Part shown: positions 1,002-32,812 of the stretch, one piece after another | Numbering within the stretch: position 1 is the stretch's first letter | Layout of the letters: each line of letters opens with the position of its first letter | Assembly: GCA_023667435.1 (NCBI GenBank) | Contig: JAMPAB010000003.1 | Location: 3,176-67,175 of the forward strand | Direction: 5' to 3' | Source: Corallococcus sp. | Lineage (GTDB): Bacteria; Bacillota; Clostridia; Christensenellales; CAG-314 | DNA length: 64,000 nt | The notes under the pieces: generated by a model | Told to the model about the DNA's origin: nothing | The model's input: the letters and a program-made list of their open reading frames with translations, nothing else | The model's database searches: none | Position numbers and translations under genes: made by a program

Positions 1002-1771
1002 TAGTTTTTTTCCTCTCTCTTTAAAAATTGTCGAGCAAGCGCATCATAAGCCAAAGCGCCGTTAGAATGCGGCGCATGCAGCATAATAGGAACGCCGAAA
1101 CTGGGAGATTCCACCAATTTTATATTGCGCGGCACGGGAACAGTGTAAATTTTGTCCCCGAAATATTTATAAATTTCTTCGGTTACTTGTTTGGACATCG
1201 TGGTACGAATATCGTACATCGTCAAAATTACGCCGTTTATATATAAGCGGGGATTTAAACGCTGTTTGACAATTTTAACGGTATTCATTAGCTGGCTTAA
1301 ACCTTCCAGCGCAAAAAATTCGCTTTGAATAGGAATTATCACTCCGTCGGAAGCGACAAGCGCGTTCAACGTAATCAAACCCAAACTGGGCGGACAGTCG
1401 ATAAAAATATAGTCATACTCGTCGATTATCGGAGTAAGCGCGCGTTTCAGTGCGCTTTCCCTAAACGGAATAGAAACGAGATCGACTTCGGCAGCGGCAA
1501 GATCGATATTGCTCGGTACAATCGACAGATTGTCGATAACCGAAGCTTTAACGACCTCGCTTACGGAACACGCTTCCATAAGCATATCGTAACAGGTATA
1601 TTCCAGTTGATTTTTTTCAATACCGAATCCGCTTGTGGCGTTGCCCTGCGGATCGAAATCCACAAGCAGAACCTTTTTGCCGAACTTAGCTACGTAAGCG
1701 GACAGATTGATTGCGGTCGTCGTTTTTCCGACCCCGCCTTTTTGGTTTGAAAAAGCAAATACTTTACCCAT
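1001..1771 (-). CDS. parA: ParA/Soj partitioning ATPase
   Basis: 256-aa ORF with the deviant Walker A motif NQKGGVGKTTT. Its stop overlaps the parB start, and GGAG precedes the ATG. Confidence 0.9.
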   Translation of the reverse strand: MGKVFAFSNQKGGVGKTTTAINLSAYVAKFGKKVLLVDFDPQGNATSGFGIEKNQLEYTCYDMLMEACSVSEVVKASVIDNLSIVPSNIDLAAAEVDLVSIPFRESALKRALTPIIDEYDYIFIDCPPSLGLITLNALVASDGVIIPIQSEFFALEGLSQLMNTVKIVKQRLNPRLYINGVILTMYDIRTTMSKQVTEEIYKYFGDKIYTVPVPRNIKLVESPSFGVPIMLHAPHSNGALAYDALARQFLKREEKN

Positions 1772-7273: not shown

Positions 7274-8980
7274 TTAAGGATTGTAGTTATTTATATTGTC
7301 CGTAAGCGTCTTCAATTTAGTCTGCATATACGTGGCGTAAGCGACGTTGCCCGTGTTGGTAGCGTCAAACGCCAAATTATTAGTCTTTATCGCCGACGAC
7401 GTATATTGAGCATACTTAGATTTAAAATTGTTCTTGTAATTGTCAAACGTCAACGCCGTCAACGCTTGCGAAGAATTTAACGTCAGCAAATTCTGACGGT
7501 ACAGACTAAGCGCAGATCCGCTGCCTGTGGGAGCGCCTTTATCTATAAGATTTATATACAGCGGGTTCGTTTGTCCGCCGCCCGTTGCCGCAACGGTACG
7601 GGTATACGGCGTAACGTTCATATTTGCGCTTCCTGTAGGATTCCAATCCTTCGTAATTCCCAAACATCTGTCGTAATCGTACGGAATAATTATCGCCCTG
7701 CCGTCGGCGCGGAAATACAAATAATAGTTGTTGTAATTGTTGCGTATACAGTCGGGGTTGCCTAATATGTAATTTACCGCTTCGAATTTTGCAAAATATT
7801 CTACGTCTATAAGTTTGGAATAATCGGCGTTCGACTTATTGAGAGCGGTGATAAAATTTTTAACGGAAGACAAATCGCGCAATCCCGTCGTTGCGTTTTT
7901 CTTTTTATTCGTCTTTTTATCGTAGCTGTAAAACTCTCCTTTCAACTCGTCCTCGACGCCTACGCGTTTGTCTAATTCGTTTGTCGTCAAATCGGCAGGT
8001 CCCGTTGTCGTATACGTACATTTCCACAAATCTCCGACTTTCGCCTCTCCGATGTTTCTGGTAACGAATACCTCGTCTATCGGTTCGTATATTCTGTATA
8101 CGCCTAAGTTTTTCTTCGTTTTATTTTTTTCCAGCGCCGTTAACGAACAAAGCGTAACGTTCGGCGCGTATATGCCGTTGTCGCGAAAAAGCTTCATAGC
8201 ATAAAGCTCGCGTACGTAAGTTTCGTCGGCGGTAGAATTATACTTGATATCTATTTTTTCCATTCCGCCGAGCGTTCTGTTTTTGCGCGCGGCGCGTTCG
8301 GACGCGTTAGACCAAACTTTTAACTCATCTTGCGTATAACCGTCGCTTACATCGTCAAACGTCTGCTTGAAAGACAGTTTCATATGTATATTGTTTGTAA
8401 ATCCGCCGTTCGAATAAAATGCGTGACGCGAAGTATTGCCTTTCATACGAACGCCGACTTCTTCGTAATAATAATTCAACCAACCGTTACCGTCGTCTAT
8501 TCCTATAATAACGCTGTTCGCCATTCGGTATATGGGAGATTTGCCGCCTTTGCTTAAAAAATCGATATAGTCCTGATTCAGTTTTTTCCACTCGGCGTCG
8601 GACATATCTATATCTATCGCAACCGTAGAATTTTCACTGAACAGCGCTTCGTAAACTTTATTTTCGCTTCCGGAAACGTACCTTGCGGTAAACGTTTTAT
8701 TTTGCGCGTAACTTTTCGAAGAATCGAATTTTTCGTCGCCGTAAAACCAACCGCTAAACGCATATCCGTCTCGATGAGGTTCTTCGCTCACCTGTACTTT
8801 TCCGTTTTCCTCGTAAGGATGCGCCGTCAACGTTGTCCCTCCGTCGGAAAAAACTCCTTCTCCCGACAAAAAAGTTATTACGACGTTCTCGTTCACGGGA
8901 GGATTCGCTTCGATCAGTCCGCAAGCCGCAAGCGATACGAGCATTATTGCTAGCAAGATGATTATCGCCGTTTTTTTCAT
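7274..8980 (-). CDS. CotH-family (spore-coat kinase-like) lipoprotein
   Basis: 568-aa ORF with a signal peptide and lipobox (LSLAAC), a GYAFSGWFYGDEKF repeat, and the CotH-like NNYYLYF..IIPYDYDRCLG motif. Confidence 0.7.
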   Translation of the reverse strand: MKKTAIIILLAIMLVSLAACGLIEANPPVNENVVITFLSGEGVFSDGGTTLTAHPYEENGKVQVSEEPHRDGYAFSGWFYGDEKFDSSKSYAQNKTFTARYVSGSENKVYEALFSENSTVAIDIDMSDAEWKKLNQDYIDFLSKGGKSPIYRMANSVIIGIDDGNGWLNYYYEEVGVRMKGNTSRHAFYSNGGFTNNIHMKLSFKQTFDDVSDGYTQDELKVWSNASERAARKNRTLGGMEKIDIKYNSTADETYVRELYAMKLFRDNGIYAPNVTLCSLTALEKNKTKKNLGVYRIYEPIDEVFVTRNIGEAKVGDLWKCTYTTTGPADLTTNELDKRVGVEDELKGEFYSYDKKTNKKKNATTGLRDLSSVKNFITALNKSNADYSKLIDVEYFAKFEAVNYILGNPDCIRNNYNNYYLYFRADGRAIIIPYDYDRCLGITKDWNPTGSANMNVTPYTRTVAATGGGQTNPLYINLIDKGAPTGSGSALSLYRQNLLTLNSSQALTALTFDNYKNNFKSKYAQYTSSAIKTNNLAFDATNTGNVAYATYMQTKLKTLTDNINNYNP

Positions 8981-21068: not shown

Positions 21069-21144
21069 CGAGGTGTAGCGCAGTTGGTAGCGCGCTTGGT
21101 TCGGGACCAAGAGGCCATGGGTTCGAATCCCGTCACTTCGACCA
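21069..21144 (+). tRNA. tRNA-Pro (anticodon CGG), CCA encoded
   Basis: Manual cloverleaf: acceptor CGAGGTG/CACTTCG, D arm GCGC..GCGC, anticodon stem CTTGG/CCAAG with loop TTCGGGA, T arm ATGGG-TTCGAAT-CCCGT, then A-CCA. Confidence 0.9.
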
Positions 21145-26970: not shown

Positions 26971-27903
26971 TTATATCTTATTTGCTCTTTTAATATCTCT
27001 TACCGTTTTGACTATTTCGAATACGCAACCCAAAACGCAGAACAATACTGTAAGCGCCAAATCGGCGTAGAACAATCTCGAAAATTCCTCGTCTTTCATC
27101 AATACGGAGAACGCTTCGAATGCGTTCAAACCGTATTCTGCGCCTGCCGCTCCCGCCGCATACAGATAAATACCCAAAACCGAAGCAATCATACAGACGA
27201 AAGTCGTCGCCGTTACGATTACTATCATCATCTTGTTGGGCTTGCCGCCGAATTTTCTATATAAAAGAATACCGACAAAGAAAGCTACAAACGACGATAT
27301 CGCAGACACAAATCCTACTACGTACAGCAAAACCGCAACTAACGCGCCTGCCAGTCCGCCTATTAACGCGCCCGCAAAACCTTTCAGATAGTTGTTGGGC
27401 GCCGCTTCGAACTCGAGGTTTTCCTGCTCGATAATCTCGTTTAATTTATTGATGCAATCGTCGTCGAGCGTAAACGTCATTCCTTCTACCTGACGCTTCG
27501 CCGCTCCTTCGGGTAACGTCATTCCGCAAATGGGACAATGTCCGCTTCCCGAAGCGTTGTTGTTCGTCAGGATCTCGCATACTTTATTGACTATTTCTTC
27601 TATTTTCAAAGCAATCTTGCTCGCCGTCCAGTCGGTTATTACAAACTTAACGCCGAACTTATCGAAAGAATAGCGCACGAACTTTGTCGAAAGAATTTTG
27701 ATTTCGCTTTCGATTGCGCCCCTGTACTGTTCCGTTGCGTAAAACGCAATATGAAGCGTGACGCCTCCGTTACCTCCGTTCATATCGGCATACGGTATAG
27801 CGCCTAAAAAATTCACCTCGTAACCGTTTATTACGCCGTACGCTTTTTCGCCGTTTACAACCGCTCCGCGCTGTTCGAAATATTCTTTATACTTCCTATG
27901 CAT
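26971..27903 (-). CDS. Hypothetical membrane protein (cytoplasmic N-domain with CPICG motif, about 4 TM)
   Basis: 310-aa ORF with a hydrophobic C-terminal half. No family recognised. Confidence 0.6.
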   Translation of the reverse strand: MHRKYKEYFEQRGAVVNGEKAYGVINGYEVNFLGAIPYADMNGGNGGVTLHIAFYATEQYRGAIESEIKILSTKFVRYSFDKFGVKFVITDWTASKIALKIEEIVNKVCEILTNNNASGSGHCPICGMTLPEGAAKRQVEGMTFTLDDDCINKLNEIIEQENLEFEAAPNNYLKGFAGALIGGLAGALVAVLLYVVGFVSAISSFVAFFVGILLYRKFGGKPNKMMIVIVTATTFVCMIASVLGIYLYAAGAAGAEYGLNAFEAFSVLMKDEEFSRLFYADLALTVLFCVLGCVFEIVKTVRDIKRANKI

Positions 27904-28232
27904 AACGTTACCTCCTTATTCTTTTCCTATACTAGTATATCATTATACCCCCCCCCGTTGTCAAGAGCGTATTTTACAAAATTCGACATTTTATGCGCTC
28001 CGCCGTAAAAACAGCCTACCTGCTTTGTTTCGTCGTTATCCGTAAATCGGAAAGCCGTCGTATCTGCAAATAACGCAGAGATTTTTAACTGCACGCACAA
28101 CATTCGTGCGGCGGCAACGGCGCGCCGCATAAATCTTACAAAGCGAACTTGCAGCGCGATTGTTTTACGTATGGAACTACTCGCGCGCAGTCAACTTTTA
28201 ATTTCGAAAACGTAATGTTTGCAATAAAAAAC

Positions 28233-28267
28233 GTACAAGTAACGCATTTAAAACGTATTACCTGTAC
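28233..28267. repeat. 35-nt palindromic intergenic element, copy 3
   Basis: GTACAAGTAACGCATTTAAAACGTATTACCTGTAC. The outer 10 bp of each arm are identical to copy 2. Confidence 0.6.
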
Positions 28268-28394
28268 ATAAATATTTAAGCTGATAGGCAATGAAGATAA
28301 GAGATCGATATGTTTCGAATTTACGACACATTCGCTTCGATGTGTAGAAACAACTATTTTATGTCGCGCGCTTACTAAACGAAGTCTGCAATAT

Positions 28395-28424
28395 AAAAAA
28401 AGTCCGCCGTATCTAATACGGCAG
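28395..28424 (-). terminator. Intrinsic terminator on the minus strand
   Basis: Minus strand reads CTGCCGTAT-TAG-ATACGGCGG (9 bp, with a U-G pair valid only on minus), then AC and TTTTTTT. Confidence 0.75.
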
Positions 28425-28430
28425 AACGAA

Positions 28431-28963
28431 TTTTTAAATACCGAAAGTCTTTCGTTGTTCTAATCGGAACAATGACGCGACGCGTTAAGACAACAGCACA
28501 GTGCGCTGTTGTTAGCCAAAGCGGTCAACGGGGTCCCCGTAAAATTGTAAATTTTATGGGGTACACTGTGCTATGCTTGCAGACCGGTGTTCGACAGAAA
28601 AAGAACAATAACCTTCGTGTTTGAGCGAACTCGGTTATTGTCGGCGTTCGACGTATTTCATTCGTCTCGGCTGTATCTGCAACGAGCTACTACTTATCTC
28701 AACAGACTAGTCAATTAAAGTTAACCTTGTTCTAAGCAGAGTGAGGGGTATCTAATTGTGTCCCATTGAGAGTGAAGCGTAGCGTAACGCCACATTTGCA
28801 GAGGGGCGAAACCGAGAAATATTCCTGCAACCTACTAGTCCATTAACGTCCACCGCTTGACAATCGGAGCGAGGGTGTTCCGTTTGCGAACATTTGGACT
28901 GAGCGCAGCGAGGGAAACCGAGAGCAAACGGAATACCCGACGCGACACCCCGATGCGACTAAC
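28431..28963. ncRNA. Candidate large structured noncoding RNA or structured dnaA 3-prime region (class unknown)
   Basis: About 530 nt with no ORF of 60 aa or more in any frame. Helices: 15 bp (28873-87/28924-38), 12 bp (28535-46/28550-61), 9+4 bp (28605-13/28633-41), and a long-range 9 bp (28497-505/28565-573). Strand cues conflict. Confidence 0.45.
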
Positions 28964-30328
28964 TTAACGATTATAAATCTTATCCCTTATATCCTTAACC
29001 TGAGACGCAGTCCTGTCGTTATTTTTACACTCTTCGCTTATTTTATCGCGCGCGTGCATAACGGTGGTGTGATCGCGACCGCCGAAATATTCGCCGATAG
29101 ATACGAGAGGAATGCTTTGCCCTAAAATGTCGCAAATAAGATATATACATATCTGACGCGGAACTACGATTTCCTTATTCTTTTTCTTGCCTATAATATC
29201 CTCGCGCTTTACGTTAAAATATTCGCAAGTCGATTTTACTATACGGTCTATCGTAATTATATCGTTAGTTGCGTCGGCATAATCGCGCAAAGCGTCGCAA
29301 ACTATATCCATATTGTTGGGATCTCCGCCGACGAGAGTGGAATAGCTTATTATTCTGTTAAGCATTCCTTCCATTTCTCTTATGTTGTTGGTTATCTTTT
29401 CGGCGATAAGACTCAAAACGTCGATTGTCAAATTATATCCTTTTGCGCCGCATTTTTTCTGAAGAATAGCTATCCTCGTTTCCAAATCGGGCGGTTGAAT
29501 ATCCGCAATAACGCCTGTTGCGAAACGCGTTTTTAACCTTTCCTCTATTTTAATTTCTTTGGGAGGGCGGTCGCTGCTGAGAATAATTTGTTTGTCCGCA
29601 AGATACAGTTCGTTAAAAGTATGGAACATTTCTTCCTGCGTTCCTTCCTTGTTTGCAAGAAACTGCACGTCGTCCATCATAAGTACGTCTACTTTGCGAT
29701 ACTTACTGCGGAAATTTTTCATCGCGTTCGGATTTGTAGTATCGTGAAGCGATTCTATAAATTCGTTTACAAACTGGTCGCAAGTGACGTACATAATTTT
29801 CTTATTGGGAAAATTGCGTTGGAGAGAATTGCCTATCGCGTGCATCAGGTGCGTTTTCCCCAGTCCTACGCCTCCCCACAAAAATACGGGATTGTATTTA
29901 GTAGCGGAGTTTTCCGCAACGGTCCTGGCTACGGCCTCTGCGTATTCGTTGCTTTTGCCTACGACGAACGTGTCGAACGTATACTGCGATACAAATACCG
30001 CCTTGTCCTCCACGATAGAAACATAATTGCTGCTTACGGGCAAATCTACTTCTTTTTGAACGTTGCCTACGTTTTCCAAATCGTCTTCCGTTATTATTTC
30101 TATATCTATAATCGACGGAAATACAAGGTTGGCGCACTTCTTTATCGTATCTTTGTAGTTGTTGTCTACGATATTCTTCAAGGCGCGCGTTTCGGCGAGC
30201 AGAATAAGTCTGTCGCGGTAAATGCCTACCGGTTGCAGTTGGTTTATGTATAGGTCGTACTGCAACGTCGAAACTTTAGCTTCCGTTTCCAATAAGATAT
30301 TGTTCCATATTTGATTTATTTTAAGCAT
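28964..30328 (-). CDS. dnaA: Chromosomal replication initiator DnaA
   Basis: Walker A LWGGVGLGKTHL, box VII/sensor regions, and C-terminal ..GGRDHTTVMHA. Start set at MLKINQIW (Trp at residue 8, as is usual). The track ORF begins 6 codons earlier at a GTG. Confidence 0.9.
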   Translation of the reverse strand: MLKINQIWNNILLETEAKVSTLQYDLYINQLQPVGIYRDRLILLAETRALKNIVDNNYKDTIKKCANLVFPSIIDIEIITEDDLENVGNVQKEVDLPVSSNYVSIVEDKAVFVSQYTFDTFVVGKSNEYAEAVARTVAENSATKYNPVFLWGGVGLGKTHLMHAIGNSLQRNFPNKKIMYVTCDQFVNEFIESLHDTTNPNAMKNFRSKYRKVDVLMMDDVQFLANKEGTQEEMFHTFNELYLADKQIILSSDRPPKEIKIEERLKTRFATGVIADIQPPDLETRIAILQKKCGAKGYNLTIDVLSLIAEKITNNIREMEGMLNRIISYSTLVGGDPNNMDIVCDALRDYADATNDIITIDRIVKSTCEYFNVKREDIIGKKKNKEIVVPRQICIYLICDILGQSIPLVSIGEYFGGRDHTTVMHARDKISEECKNNDRTASQVKDIRDKIYNR

Positions 30329-30656
30329 AGTGATAACATTATACACTTTTTAAGTTTATTTTGCAACAATACGGCAACGCAACTTTACTTTCGAAGCAAA
30401 TAATTTGCGCAAAAAACGCAATGAAATTTTTACGAATTATATTAAAAACTGTTTATAAATTTTACTTTGAGGCAACACTTAGCCATATAGCATCCGAACA
30501 TACAAATTCGCCTGCGGAATAGAATTCGCGTCATTGCGTTTCAACGGCGTATTTGACGGTTTAAGCAACGGAATGTAACGGGAACGCCGAATATATCGCG
30601 TTGCGGAAAAAGCGGCGTTCGAACGCTATAGTTAACTCAAAAAGGAGACAATGTAT

Positions 30657-31307
30657 ATGGAACTTATCGAAAGTCAAACTTATATCAATCTTGCAAAAGC
30701 GTACTCGGGCGAAACTCAGGCTCGGACGCGTTACGAATTTGTAGAATACGGTATGCGCAACGAAGGTTACGTGACAATGGCGGAAATAGTAGATACCGTC
30801 GCATACCAGGAATTCAATCACGCGCGTATGTTCTACACGTATCTGCAAAAGGCGTCGGATAAACCTATTAAAAATATCGAATACAGCGCAGGTTTTCCTT
30901 TCAAAGAAAAATGGAACGTTACCGATAACGTAAAGTTTGCCGCAGAAGACGAGCATAACGAAGCGAAAATTTACCTGTCGTTCGCAAAGACCGCGCGCAA
31001 GGAAGGCTTCGAAGATATCGCCATTTTGTTCGAGCAAACGGCGGAGGTGGAAAAAATTCACGAAAGCATATTCGTAGAATTGCACGAGCAGCTTAAAGAT
31101 GGCACTCTTTACAAACGCGACGAACCGACAACGTGGGTGTGTTCCGCTTGCGGCTATCAGGCAACAAGTAAAGAAGGATGGAAGGAATGTCCTTTATGCA
31201 AGGCAAAGCAGGGCGCTATTTTGCTTAAATTAAAAAGCATGCAGGCAATTTCGGATACGTCCTCTCTGCTTTCGCTAAAAGATACGCGTTCTTCTCAAAG
31301 AGTTTAA
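30657..31307 (+). CDS. rbr: Rubrerythrin
   Basis: Ferritin-like E-x-x-H motifs (QEFNHARMF, EKIHESIF) plus a C-terminal rubredoxin-like C-x-x-C...C-x-x-C (CSACG..CPLCK). AGGAGA is upstream. Confidence 0.8.
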   Translation: MELIESQTYINLAKAYSGETQARTRYEFVEYGMRNEGYVTMAEIVDTVAYQEFNHARMFYTYLQKASDKPIKNIEYSAGFPFKEKWNVTDNVKFAAEDEHNEAKIYLSFAKTARKEGFEDIAILFEQTAEVEKIHESIFVELHEQLKDGTLYKRDEPTTWVCSACGYQATSKEGWKECPLCKAKQGAILLKLKSMQAISDTSSLLSLKDTRSSQRV

Positions 31308-31461
31308 TTGAGAAAAATAAAATCGCCTATACAAACGGTACGTCCTAAAGTCAAACGCTTCGGGGCGTACGTTTCACAAATACAAAAAGGTTGCGTACTG
31401 TTTTCCGCAACCTTTTTCGGTTATTCGTATTTATGAACGGTAATACGCCCGTTGCAATTCG

Positions 31462-32568
31462 TCAGACTATTTGCTTTACGGGCAAAATAAAGTAGAGCAC
31501 TTCGTCGCTGTCGTAAATAGTTATAACGCAGCTGTTGTGTTGCGCAAATTCCATTTTGATGGTTTCGGCGCTTATAACCTTTAAGCAATCGTTAATATAG
31601 CGAGAGTTATACGCGCATCTGACGTCCTTACCGGAAAGAGATATCGTAACGTTTTCCTTCGCCGTTCCGTATTGACTTGTGGAAGAGATATTCATATTGT
31701 ATTCTTCTATATTCAACACTACAAGATTATTCTTTTCGCTGCGCGACATTATAGACGCCGTGTTAAGCGCTTTTTCGAACGTCTCCTTGTTTACCACCAA
31801 CGTGGATAAGAAATCTTTCGGAACTATATTGTCGTACTTAATATACTGTCCGCCCAGCAATCTGGTGTATAATTTAGTATTTTCCATAGCAACCGTAAGA
31901 TAGTTGTTTTCGATGAATACTTTAAGTACGTTGTCGCTATCCGTAAGCAATTTCGACAATTCCGACAGACTTCTGGACGGAATTGTGGCGGAAATATAAT
32001 CAACCTTTTCTTCGAGAGCCTTTTTGCTCATTGCAAAACGGTAACCGTCGGTAGCTACGGCAGACAATGTGTATTCCCTCGCCTCGAAGTGTACGCCTTT
32101 AAGCATAGGTCTGCTGTCGTCGGTAGCTACGGCGAATATTACGTTGGTAATTATATCTTTAAGGTTGATTTCCTGAACGGCGAAGTAATTGGCGCCGTTT
32201 ATATTTTCCGTTTCGGGATAATCGGAAACGTCCAAAGTGCTTATGGTACACTCGCTGTTTGCCGAGCTGATAAACAGTCTGTTGTCGTCCGTTATTTCTA
32301 ACGAGATATCGCTTCCGTTATCGGCAATATTTCGGATATATTCTCCGAATATTCTTCCCGGCACAAGCATCGCTCCGCCGACGATAACGTTTGCGTCGAT
32401 CGTTTTTTCTATTGCAAGGTCTTTATCCGTAGCGTAAAGCGTCAATCTGTCATTCTCTGCGGACATCTTGATACATTCCAAAACGGGCGCCACGTCGCGG
32501 CTGGGCAACGCTTTCGAGACTTTTGCTATGGCATCGTTTAAATCGAGACTGTTTACAATGATTTTCAT
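31462..32568 (-). CDS. dnaN: DNA polymerase III beta sliding clamp
   Basis: 368-aa ORF with the typical MKIIVNSLDLNDAIAKVSKALPSR.. N-terminus and a three-domain length. AAGGAG is upstream. Confidence 0.9.
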   Translation of the reverse strand: MKIIVNSLDLNDAIAKVSKALPSRDVAPVLECIKMSAENDRLTLYATDKDLAIEKTIDANVIVGGAMLVPGRIFGEYIRNIADNGSDISLEITDDNRLFISSANSECTISTLDVSDYPETENINGANYFAVQEINLKDIITNVIFAVATDDSRPMLKGVHFEAREYTLSAVATDGYRFAMSKKALEEKVDYISATIPSRSLSELSKLLTDSDNVLKVFIENNYLTVAMENTKLYTRLLGGQYIKYDNIVPKDFLSTLVVNKETFEKALNTASIMSRSEKNNLVVLNIEEYNMNISSTSQYGTAKENVTISLSGKDVRCAYNSRYINDCLKVISAETIKMEFAQHNSCVITIYDSDEVLYFILPVKQIV

Positions 32569-32660
32569 AAGCAACTCCTTCTATAAGCTTTTCGTGTTTG
32601 ATTTTTTCTTTTGCGTTTACAAGTAATACTCTTTCTTTTGGTAGTAGTGTTATTAGACGT

Positions 32661-32812
32661 TGTGAATATGTGGACAACCTCTTTTTAAAACCGCCGAAAT
32701 CTATATATTGTCCTAATCGAGGCGAATTTTTTCAAGATATTGTGTTATGCCACAAATAGCTTACGTGGATAACTTCCGATATTTTTCCACAGCGATTTCG
32801 TATTTATTCACA
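32661..32812. promoter_or_regulatory. Cluster of DnaA-box-like 9-mers (candidate oriC)
   Basis: TGTGAATAT 32661, TGTGGACAA 32669, CGTGGATAA 32764, TTTTCCACA 32783, TTATTCACA 32804. Each has 1-2 mismatches to TTATCCACA. An AT-rich tract follows at 32871-32895. Confidence 0.55.

Follow-up and report, generated by a model that had tools for sequence, protein, structure and literature searches.

Organisation of the tract downstream of dnaA

Does the ORF-free, helix-dense sequence lying between dnaA and a terminator encode a large structured RNA? The initial annotation of the window (the whole 64 kb stretch of DNA analysed here) proposed that about 530 nt at 28431–28963 form one large ornate RNA of unknown class. 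Our analysis indicates that this tract is probably the downstream spacer of dnaA plus one copy of a dispersed, non-autonomous, MITE-like structured repeat. The repeat copy (28473–28589, minus strand) is the only conserved part, and about four-fifths of the tract is unconserved spacer.

The ORF at 28964–30346 (minus strand) encodes DnaA (Pfam Bac_DnaA, 4.7e-66; Bac_DnaA_C, 9.3e-25; DnaA_N), and the same strand carries the tract on the 3' side of this gene. The protein shares 77–91% identity with DnaA of 39 related species, whose records carry the labels Christensenellaceae, Clostridia or Oscillospiraceae; the window comes from an uncultured gut lineage of Clostridia. A terminator scan placed an intrinsic terminator at 28394–28425 (minus strand; 10-bp stem at 28425–28403 with five G-C pairs, then a T-run), agreeing, as did Pfam, with the earlier assignment of dnaA and a clean terminator to the minus strand. 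Read along that strand, the order is dnaN, rubrerythrin (on the opposite strand), dnaA, the tract with its terminator, and a gene for a 310-aa hypothetical protein. The arrangement of dnaN, rubrerythrin and dnaA across 28964–32574 is unusual. The longest ORFs overlapping 28431–28963 encode 50 aa (28472–28624, plus strand) and 43 aa, in line with the initial report of no ORF of 60 aa or more.

It has to be asked whether the tract is part of the replication origin, as a DnaA-box cluster or an unwinding element, and neither an RNA nor a repeat. It adjoins dnaA, and the cumulative GC skew reaches its minimum near 28–32 kb of the window. Such an identity is nevertheless scarcely credible: 28431–28963 contains no DnaA box with up to one mismatch, the composition profile of the tract (44–50% GC) has no AT-rich character, and the tract is not conserved at the same position in relatives. 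Four near-consensus DnaA boxes (up to one mismatch) cluster instead at 32669–32812, upstream of dnaN, and this cluster together with the skew minimum suggests that oriC probably lies there. We therefore rejected oriC on the DnaA-box search and the composition profile.

Helices of the tract compared with chance

An inverted-repeat search recovered the helices on which the large-RNA proposal was based. They comprise a 15-nt inverted repeat (28873–87 with 28924–38, 93% complementary), a 12-bp hairpin (28535–46 with 28550–61, inverted repeat I2), a 9-bp stem (28605–13 with 28633–41) and a 9-bp long-range pair (28495–503 with 28564–72); a 6-bp helix, TTGCAG/CTGCAA, is visible in the sequence and is too short for assessment. 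Three Watson-Crick helices of at least 9 bp were observed where dinucleotide shuffles gave 0.48, and three or more were reached in 4 of 300 shuffles (~1%). The 15-bp helix, which includes one G-T pair, was equalled in 4% of shuffles. The helices thus exceed the shuffle expectation, but the excess is modest. The minimum free energy of the tract gave z-scores of −2.15 (minus strand) and −3.37 (plus strand). The conflict between strand cues noted at the outset persists, as the long helices favour the plus strand and the conserved module and terminator are on the minus strand.

The only helix of the tract with comparative support is one that the initial annotation omitted, a hairpin at 28490–28512 (inverted repeat I5; P5 below). 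The 9-bp long-range pair competes with the conserved fold because it uses the apex and the 3' strand of this hairpin. The 15-bp helix, the 9+4-bp hairpin and the 6-bp helix all lie within ~370 nt that have no detectable homolog.

The tract as a whole is not conserved

At the gathering score, Rfam 15 returned nothing but one tRNA in the window, and at E values up to 10 nothing relevant was found in 28100–29100. The covariance models of OLE, ROOL, GOLLD, raiA and HEARO, several of which had been named as candidate classes, were not matched by the tract. We compared 80 dnaA loci from related species (39 of them at 77–91% DnaA identity), and none carried the tract downstream of dnaA. The spacer from dnaA to the next conserved gene ranged in these relatives from ~70 nt to ~4.8 kb, with unrelated contents, and this site is a variable hot spot (window 26971–28963 against loci L001–L039). 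The spacer measures ~70 nt in L017, 134–550 nt in L001, L003 and L004, and 2.4–4.8 kb in others, and a 688–693-aa ORF occupies it on the opposite strand in L002, L006 and L039.

The part without homologs is 28590–28963 (~370 of the 533 nt), a lineage-specific spacer to which no strand is assigned and which holds the 15-bp helix, the 9-bp stem at 28605–41 and direct repeats. This segment had no similarity in the 80 related dnaA loci or in 204 loci in all, and BLAST against phage and plasmid collections returned nothing; exact-pattern scans of viral contigs with pieces of it gave chance matches only. The homolog search envisaged in the initial annotation yielded a single other genome with this stretch, a 98.8%-identical strain of the same species, in which the tract is unchanged but for one T-run indel. 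That second assembly is uninformative on covariation since the tract is identical there. DnaA and the neighbouring 310-aa protein are both singletons at 90% clustering, so that the collections contain no relatives at intermediate distance, and 28590–28963 is unconserved as judged on the available genomes. Within 28737–28923 we observed direct repeats, GAAACCGAGA occurring twice (28808, 28914) and a CGGAGCGAGGG-like, or CGSAGCGAGGG, repeat three times (28737, 28865, 28904).

We also considered a decayed protein-coding gene, which had been listed as a possible refutation of the RNA proposal. Six-frame peptides of at least 18 aa from the tract were searched by tblastn against 203 loci, and matches occurred in the module only. 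These fell in several frames and on both strands, indicating nucleotide conservation and not a coding signal, and a decayed gene was rejected given the lack of translated similarity outside the module.

A single large RNA of the OLE, ROOL or GOLLD kind spanning all ~530 nt beside dnaA would account for a tract that is ORF-free, has more long helices than its shuffles, reaches a z-score of −3.37 on the plus strand, embeds a conserved structured module and is followed by a terminator. It is contradicted, however, by the empty Rfam, locus, phage, plasmid and viral-contig searches and by the opposite strands of the long helices and of the terminator and only conserved element. A scan of 27800–29200 found no promoter-like site on either strand, and elsewhere the module exists as free-standing units of ~105–170 nt. 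The claim fails because the whole tract lacks both homologs and covariation; we regard it as already largely refuted and the chance that it is right as very small.

A conserved structured module in the minus strand

Segment 28524–28473 is the only part of the tract that recurs, at unrelated positions in related genomes, and the hairpin in the recurring copies carries compensatory changes. Using the two invariant strands of the module as a search pattern, we found it in at least 120 contigs of gut and rumen metagenomes and in three phage contigs. Across the family it measures ~80–120 nt. A covariance model (R1) and an RNAalifold consensus were built from 49 diverse copies, with the window copy left out.

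The core of the module is formed by a 3-bp helix, P3 (CGC with GCG), and by the loop strand UUUGGCUA, the 10-bp hairpin P5 and the loop strand CUUAACGCGUC, in this order; a 2-bp GC/GC contact joins the two loop strands. Upstream of the core is the P4 hairpin, typically GG-UC-GCAAU / AUUGC-UC-CC with a CAUAG loop (family consensus CAGGUCGCAAKCAUAGMUUGCUCCCCGC). R1 gathered 111 copies from 100 sources, 94 of them distinct. In the 111 copies, 98.1% of paired cells form standard pairs, and double (compensatory) changes were seen in 12 of 15 pairs, including all ten pairs of P5. None of 500 shuffles reached the observed covariation score, and slid controls came nowhere near it; when P4 was added, 18 of 22 pairs covaried. 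Across the 94 distinct copies P5 changed on both sides in 10 of 10 pairs and was 97% paired, and the outermost pair of P3 covaries as well (CG 76, GC 12, UA 2, AU 1). Loop strand UUUGGCUA is invariant in alignments A3 and A4, an invariance partly imposed by the search pattern. On the module strand, G-U pairs are more frequent than A-C pairs (26 versus 10 cells; 9 versus 4 stem classes), a weak preference for the minus strand of the window. This excess hints at selection on one strand and fits RNA and single-stranded DNA alike.

Rfam searches of the window and 20 other loci, at gathering and permissive thresholds, gave no family for the module, a Gut-1 RNA in L140 being the one incidental match, and sequence and keyword searches of the literature found no description of the motif. 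We conclude that the module is a new structured repeat, absent from the Rfam catalogue. The proposal of a structured element of unknown class was therefore correct as to its presence, its structure and its novelty, but the element measures ~80–117 nt and not 530, and it is a multi-copy dispersed repeat and not a single-copy gene. As an intrinsic terminator P5 does not qualify, the hairpin being followed by CUUAACGCG and not by U's, and terminator asymmetry showed no signal.

The copy in the window

R1 matched the window copy at 28554–28473 (minus strand) with 67 bits (E 2.7e-14), the only true match in the 64 kb. A 5' remnant, GGTCTGCAAGCATAGC, read from the sequence, extends the copy to ~28589. 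All core parts are present on the minus strand: the 5' strand of P3 (CGC, 28521–28523) pairs with 28476–28478; the loop strand UUUGGCUA (28513–28520) pairs through its GC with the GC of the opposite loop strand; P5, 10 bp with a CACUG apex, occupies 28490–28512; and the loop strand CUUAACGCGUC with the 3' strand of P3 (GCG) occupies 28476–28489. The latter forms the 3' boundary of the module, and in other copies the flank changes directly after GCG or GCC.

P4 is disrupted. By comparison with the family consensus, its 5' half with the loop motif GGUCUGCAAGCAUAGC lies at 28571–28586 (minus strand) and its 3' half has been replaced by the AT-rich 12-bp hairpin I2 (28535–28561, minus strand). This hairpin is missing from every other family member and is thus a lineage-specific insertion. 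Between the module and the terminator, a linker (28440–28472, minus strand) contains two small hairpins read from the sequence (28472–28455, UUGUUC..GAACAA, and 28454–28442), for which no comparative support was found; its positions 28462–71 can alternatively pair with 28876–85 (inverted repeat I8). The best direct repeat flanking the copy is 9 nt, and there is neither a flanking duplication nor a tRNA fragment. Given the disrupted P4 and the absent duplication, the window copy may be an old, decaying insertion.

Dispersal of the module in Clostridia and phages

About 8–9 copies were found in 937 kb of related genomes, roughly one per 60–120 kb. Related sites differ in the presence of the module: a ~165-nt insertion with the module in L024 corresponds to an empty orthologous site in the sister species L023, and the second element in L184, a paralogous but otherwise similar copy, lacks ~85 nt that L149 has. 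Orientation varies too: at a single syntenic locus, L085 and L108 have the module in one direction, and L184, L109, L194 and L149 have it in the reverse direction. Tandem arrays occur in L011 (three units), L095, L161, L116 and L130. ORF clustering within 3 kb of 110 copies revealed no recurring protein except unrelated ABC ATPases, and no recurring transposase, integrase, TnpB, IscB or RAYT-like ORF. The orientation of the module to flanking ORFs was mixed, with no consistent signal in our crude ORF calls.

Besides the three contigs from the pattern scan, BLAST matched the module in one unannotated phage record. In the phage contigs it is sense-oriented between genes, 30–50 nt upstream of start codons, and its 3'-terminal hairpin sometimes overlaps the ribosome-binding site. 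A riboswitch or cis-regulatory leader was considered, and no constant position upstream of one gene class was found. In phage contig L082 (1267–4352, minus strand), two direct module copies bracket an nrdD-nrdG cassette, nrdD being the anaerobic ribonucleotide reductase, and a dUTPase gene is next to it.

Three further observations were made at individual loci. L024 has a ~150-nt direct repeat beyond its dnaA (7427–7790) and, after this repeat, a second and diverged module copy at a distance of ~285 nt from dnaA. A 61-nt insert takes the place of P5 in that copy, and the CCCTACGGTGTTG flank is found again; given the density of copies and the size of the variable spacer we regard this position as a coincidence. 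A second uncatalogued multi-copy, ORF-free family of ~350–420 nt, with no Rfam match, is found in L085 (5840–6250), L097, L100, L103, L105, L117, L123, L136, L154, L184 and others. Its elements start with CCCCCTTCCTCAC after a −10-like box, end with GCCGCCTTGCGGCTCGTGTTCCGTCTTCGAA and host the module near their 5' end, except for one copy in L184 that is without it. Just downstream of such a ~400-nt element, L085 (6240–6450) differs from L108 by a 105-nt tandem duplication, the two being metagenome contigs of 99% identity.

Junctions with tRNA and tmRNA ends

About 20 copies have a sequence duplicated from a tRNA or tmRNA directly after the 3' end of the module (GCG or GCC). The junctions are of two kinds. 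In one, the duplicate is direct and runs from just after the T-loop through the CCA into the terminator; in the other, it is the reverse complement of tRNA nt 1 to ~20, ending at the D-loop GG, together with the upstream flank. Such duplications, tRNA end and flank together, are 12–52 nt long. In tRNA-linked copies an inverted, degenerate version of the same fragment is found in the 5' part of the unit, so that the inverted and junction copies could pair in a long closing stem.

Upstream of the gene for tRNA-Pro(cgg) there are one to three units in L004, L011 (three), L013 and L017, flanked by a duplicate of tRNA nt 1–19/20, and the same site is empty in L003, L006 and the window (21069–21144). 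In L191 (2757–3330), one module unit lies downstream of the tmRNA gene, and beyond this unit the final 15 nt of the tmRNA occur again, together with a terminator. In L140, a Gut-1 RNA (RF01706, 51.8 bits; 1024–1095, minus strand) lies just after tRNA-Leu, and two small cassettes (1149–1500) follow this tRNA, each finishing with the duplicated 3' end of the tRNA and a terminator of its own; only the second cassette contains the module.

Several other identities were tried and rejected. An omega-RNA or guide RNA, whose 5' arm would be complementary to the flank, fits the tRNA-linked copies and fails for simple insertions. A tRNA-like gene on the opposite strand was dismissed because the acceptor and T-arm mimics are too degenerate, ARAGORN reporting one dubious case, and on inspection an integron attC was represented by a single RYYYAAC match without a partner site.

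What the repeat may be

The tract is probably best read as a long, fast-evolving spacer, possibly a 3' UTR, between dnaA and the terminator at 28425–28403, which would have picked up one partly degraded copy (~28589–28473, minus strand) of a widespread structured repeat and would presumably be transcribed, repeat included, as part of the dnaA transcript. The repeat itself is most likely a non-autonomous, MITE-like mobile element of gut Clostridia and their phages, and its mobility would then be the cause of its dispersal. Movement would take place at the DNA level, with the fold (P4, the 3-bp helix, the invariant loop strands and the 10-bp P5) recognised by an unlinked mobilising activity. Several observations do not sit easily with such an element: neither a transposase nor an integrase nor another mobilising enzyme was found near the copies, no terminal inverted repeats are conserved at their ends, and the duplications that flank them vary in length and are long, the window copy having none. 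The G-U excess hints at selection on one strand, and near-invariant loops, their invariance partly imposed by the pattern, are seen more often in functional RNAs or protein-binding sites than in selfish repeats that are decaying.

In the main rival to a mobile repeat, the module would above all be a structured RNA domain with a function, read from the minus strand of the window, and its dispersal would be secondary. It could be a new motif for self-cleavage or processing, or an element that binds proteins or stabilises its host transcript, here the 3' UTR of dnaA. This is a serious if rather unlikely alternative. The strong covariation with near-invariant internal-loop strands argues for it, as do the G-U excess on the module strand and the lack of an Rfam family accounting for the module, and the window copy shares the orientation of dnaA, with the terminator following after 50 nt. 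The sense orientation of the phage copies shortly before start codons, at times over the ribosome-binding site, is also what such a domain might display. Against this, orientation to flanking ORFs is inconsistent and no neighbour gene recurs, the strand signal is weak (9 versus 4 stem classes), and P4 is not intact in the window copy. Upstream of tRNA-Pro, moreover, the module points away from the tRNA, so that transcription from the tRNA promoter copy would read the opposite strand. For a putative self-cleaving ribozyme of a new class, the sole suggestive feature is the architecture, with variable stems and invariant loops.

The junctions with tRNA ends raise the question of whether a module copy is the scar of a site-specific integrative element, such as the end of a prophage or island, with the module beside attP and the tract its decayed rest. 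The ~20 copies elsewhere that are joined to a directly repeated tRNA or tmRNA end, with the junction exactly after the T-loop or after the D-loop GG as in tRNA-targeting attachment sites, point in this direction, as do the occurrence of the module in phage contigs and the variability of the post-dnaA site in relatives. Yet no integrase lies near any copy, the units between repeats are only ~80–500 nt and stand in tandem arrays, and the phage modules are located between structural or nucleotide-metabolism genes and not at an attachment site. In the window, a test for attL/attR found no tRNA-end direct repeat on both sides (best 9 nt) and no recurring integrase family, and the copy has no tRNA fragment. 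We consider a scar improbable. A more speculative reading, which we hold to be unlikely, takes the same junctions as the mark of small, structured mobile elements of a new class, or of a mobile RNA domain, with genes for structured RNAs as targets. Such an element would join tRNA or tmRNA exactly at the D- or T-loop, carry an inverted copy of the displaced tRNA end as a long closing stem and spread with no protein linked to it. The invariant loops might then serve in catalysis, or in recognition by a tRNA-processing or recombination enzyme of the host.

These results have a corrective side, in that a helix-dense, ORF-free tract beside dnaA is mostly spacer and does not belong in a catalogue of large RNAs. 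What emerged alongside is perhaps more useful: a well-supported motif, represented by 111 aligned copies in which almost all pairs show compensatory changes, which is common in the Clostridia of gut and rumen and in their phages and is tied to duplications of tRNA and tmRNA ends. If mobile, the motif points to an undescribed mobilisation system in a gut clade that has been little studied, and it would complicate genome annotation around tRNA genes; if a functional RNA, it represents a new, widespread class.

Comparison with known systems

Like ROOL (RF03087) and GOLLD (RF01998), the module is found in Firmicutes and their phages, often beside tRNA genes. It matches neither covariance model, however, and is a multi-copy element of ~80–120 nt, whereas ROOL and GOLLD are single genes of 500–800 nt. 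The tRNA-targeting attachment-site scars known from tyrosine integrases resemble the tRNA-linked copies in that the direct repeats equal the part of the tRNA between a loop and the end of the gene, a copy borne by the element makes the tRNA whole again, and successive cassettes accumulate at one tRNA (L140, L170). In contrast to those scars, the units are ~80–500 nt without an integrase, the same module stands at the junction whatever the tRNA, and insertion also occurs at non-tRNA sites.

REP/BIME sequences and IS200/IS605-derived palindrome-associated elements are hairpin-based substrates of HUH enzymes. With these the module shares stems whose sequence varies while pairing is kept, conserved single-stranded flanks at the hairpin, the lack of terminal inverted repeats, and a high intergenic copy number, near terminators. 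It appears to differ in that no RAYT, TnpA or TnpB gene was found within 3 kb of the copies. GTAG occurs solely on the opposite strand, overlapping the 3' foot of P5, which would not be the REP position, and unlike IS200/IS605-derived elements the module has variable left flanks (TTTTAATG, GTTTGG, TATTTC) with no constant 4–5-nt target. Flanking duplications are present in the module family, whereas those elements make none.

Correia, RUP, BOX and bcr1 are MITEs or other non-autonomous dispersed bacterial repeats, and the likeness to these is broad. The module, too, is small, non-coding, multi-copy and intergenic, occurs in both orientations, shows presence/absence polymorphism between related genomes, forms stable hairpins and would, if mobilised at all, be mobilised in trans. 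It departs from MITEs in lacking conserved terminal inverted repeats, its 5' ends differing between subfamilies, and in lacking a short target duplication of fixed length, its flanking repeats varying from 12 to 52 nt. What is conserved in the module is instead an internal core with covarying stems and invariant loops, and many of its copies are joined to 12–52-nt duplicates of tRNA ends.
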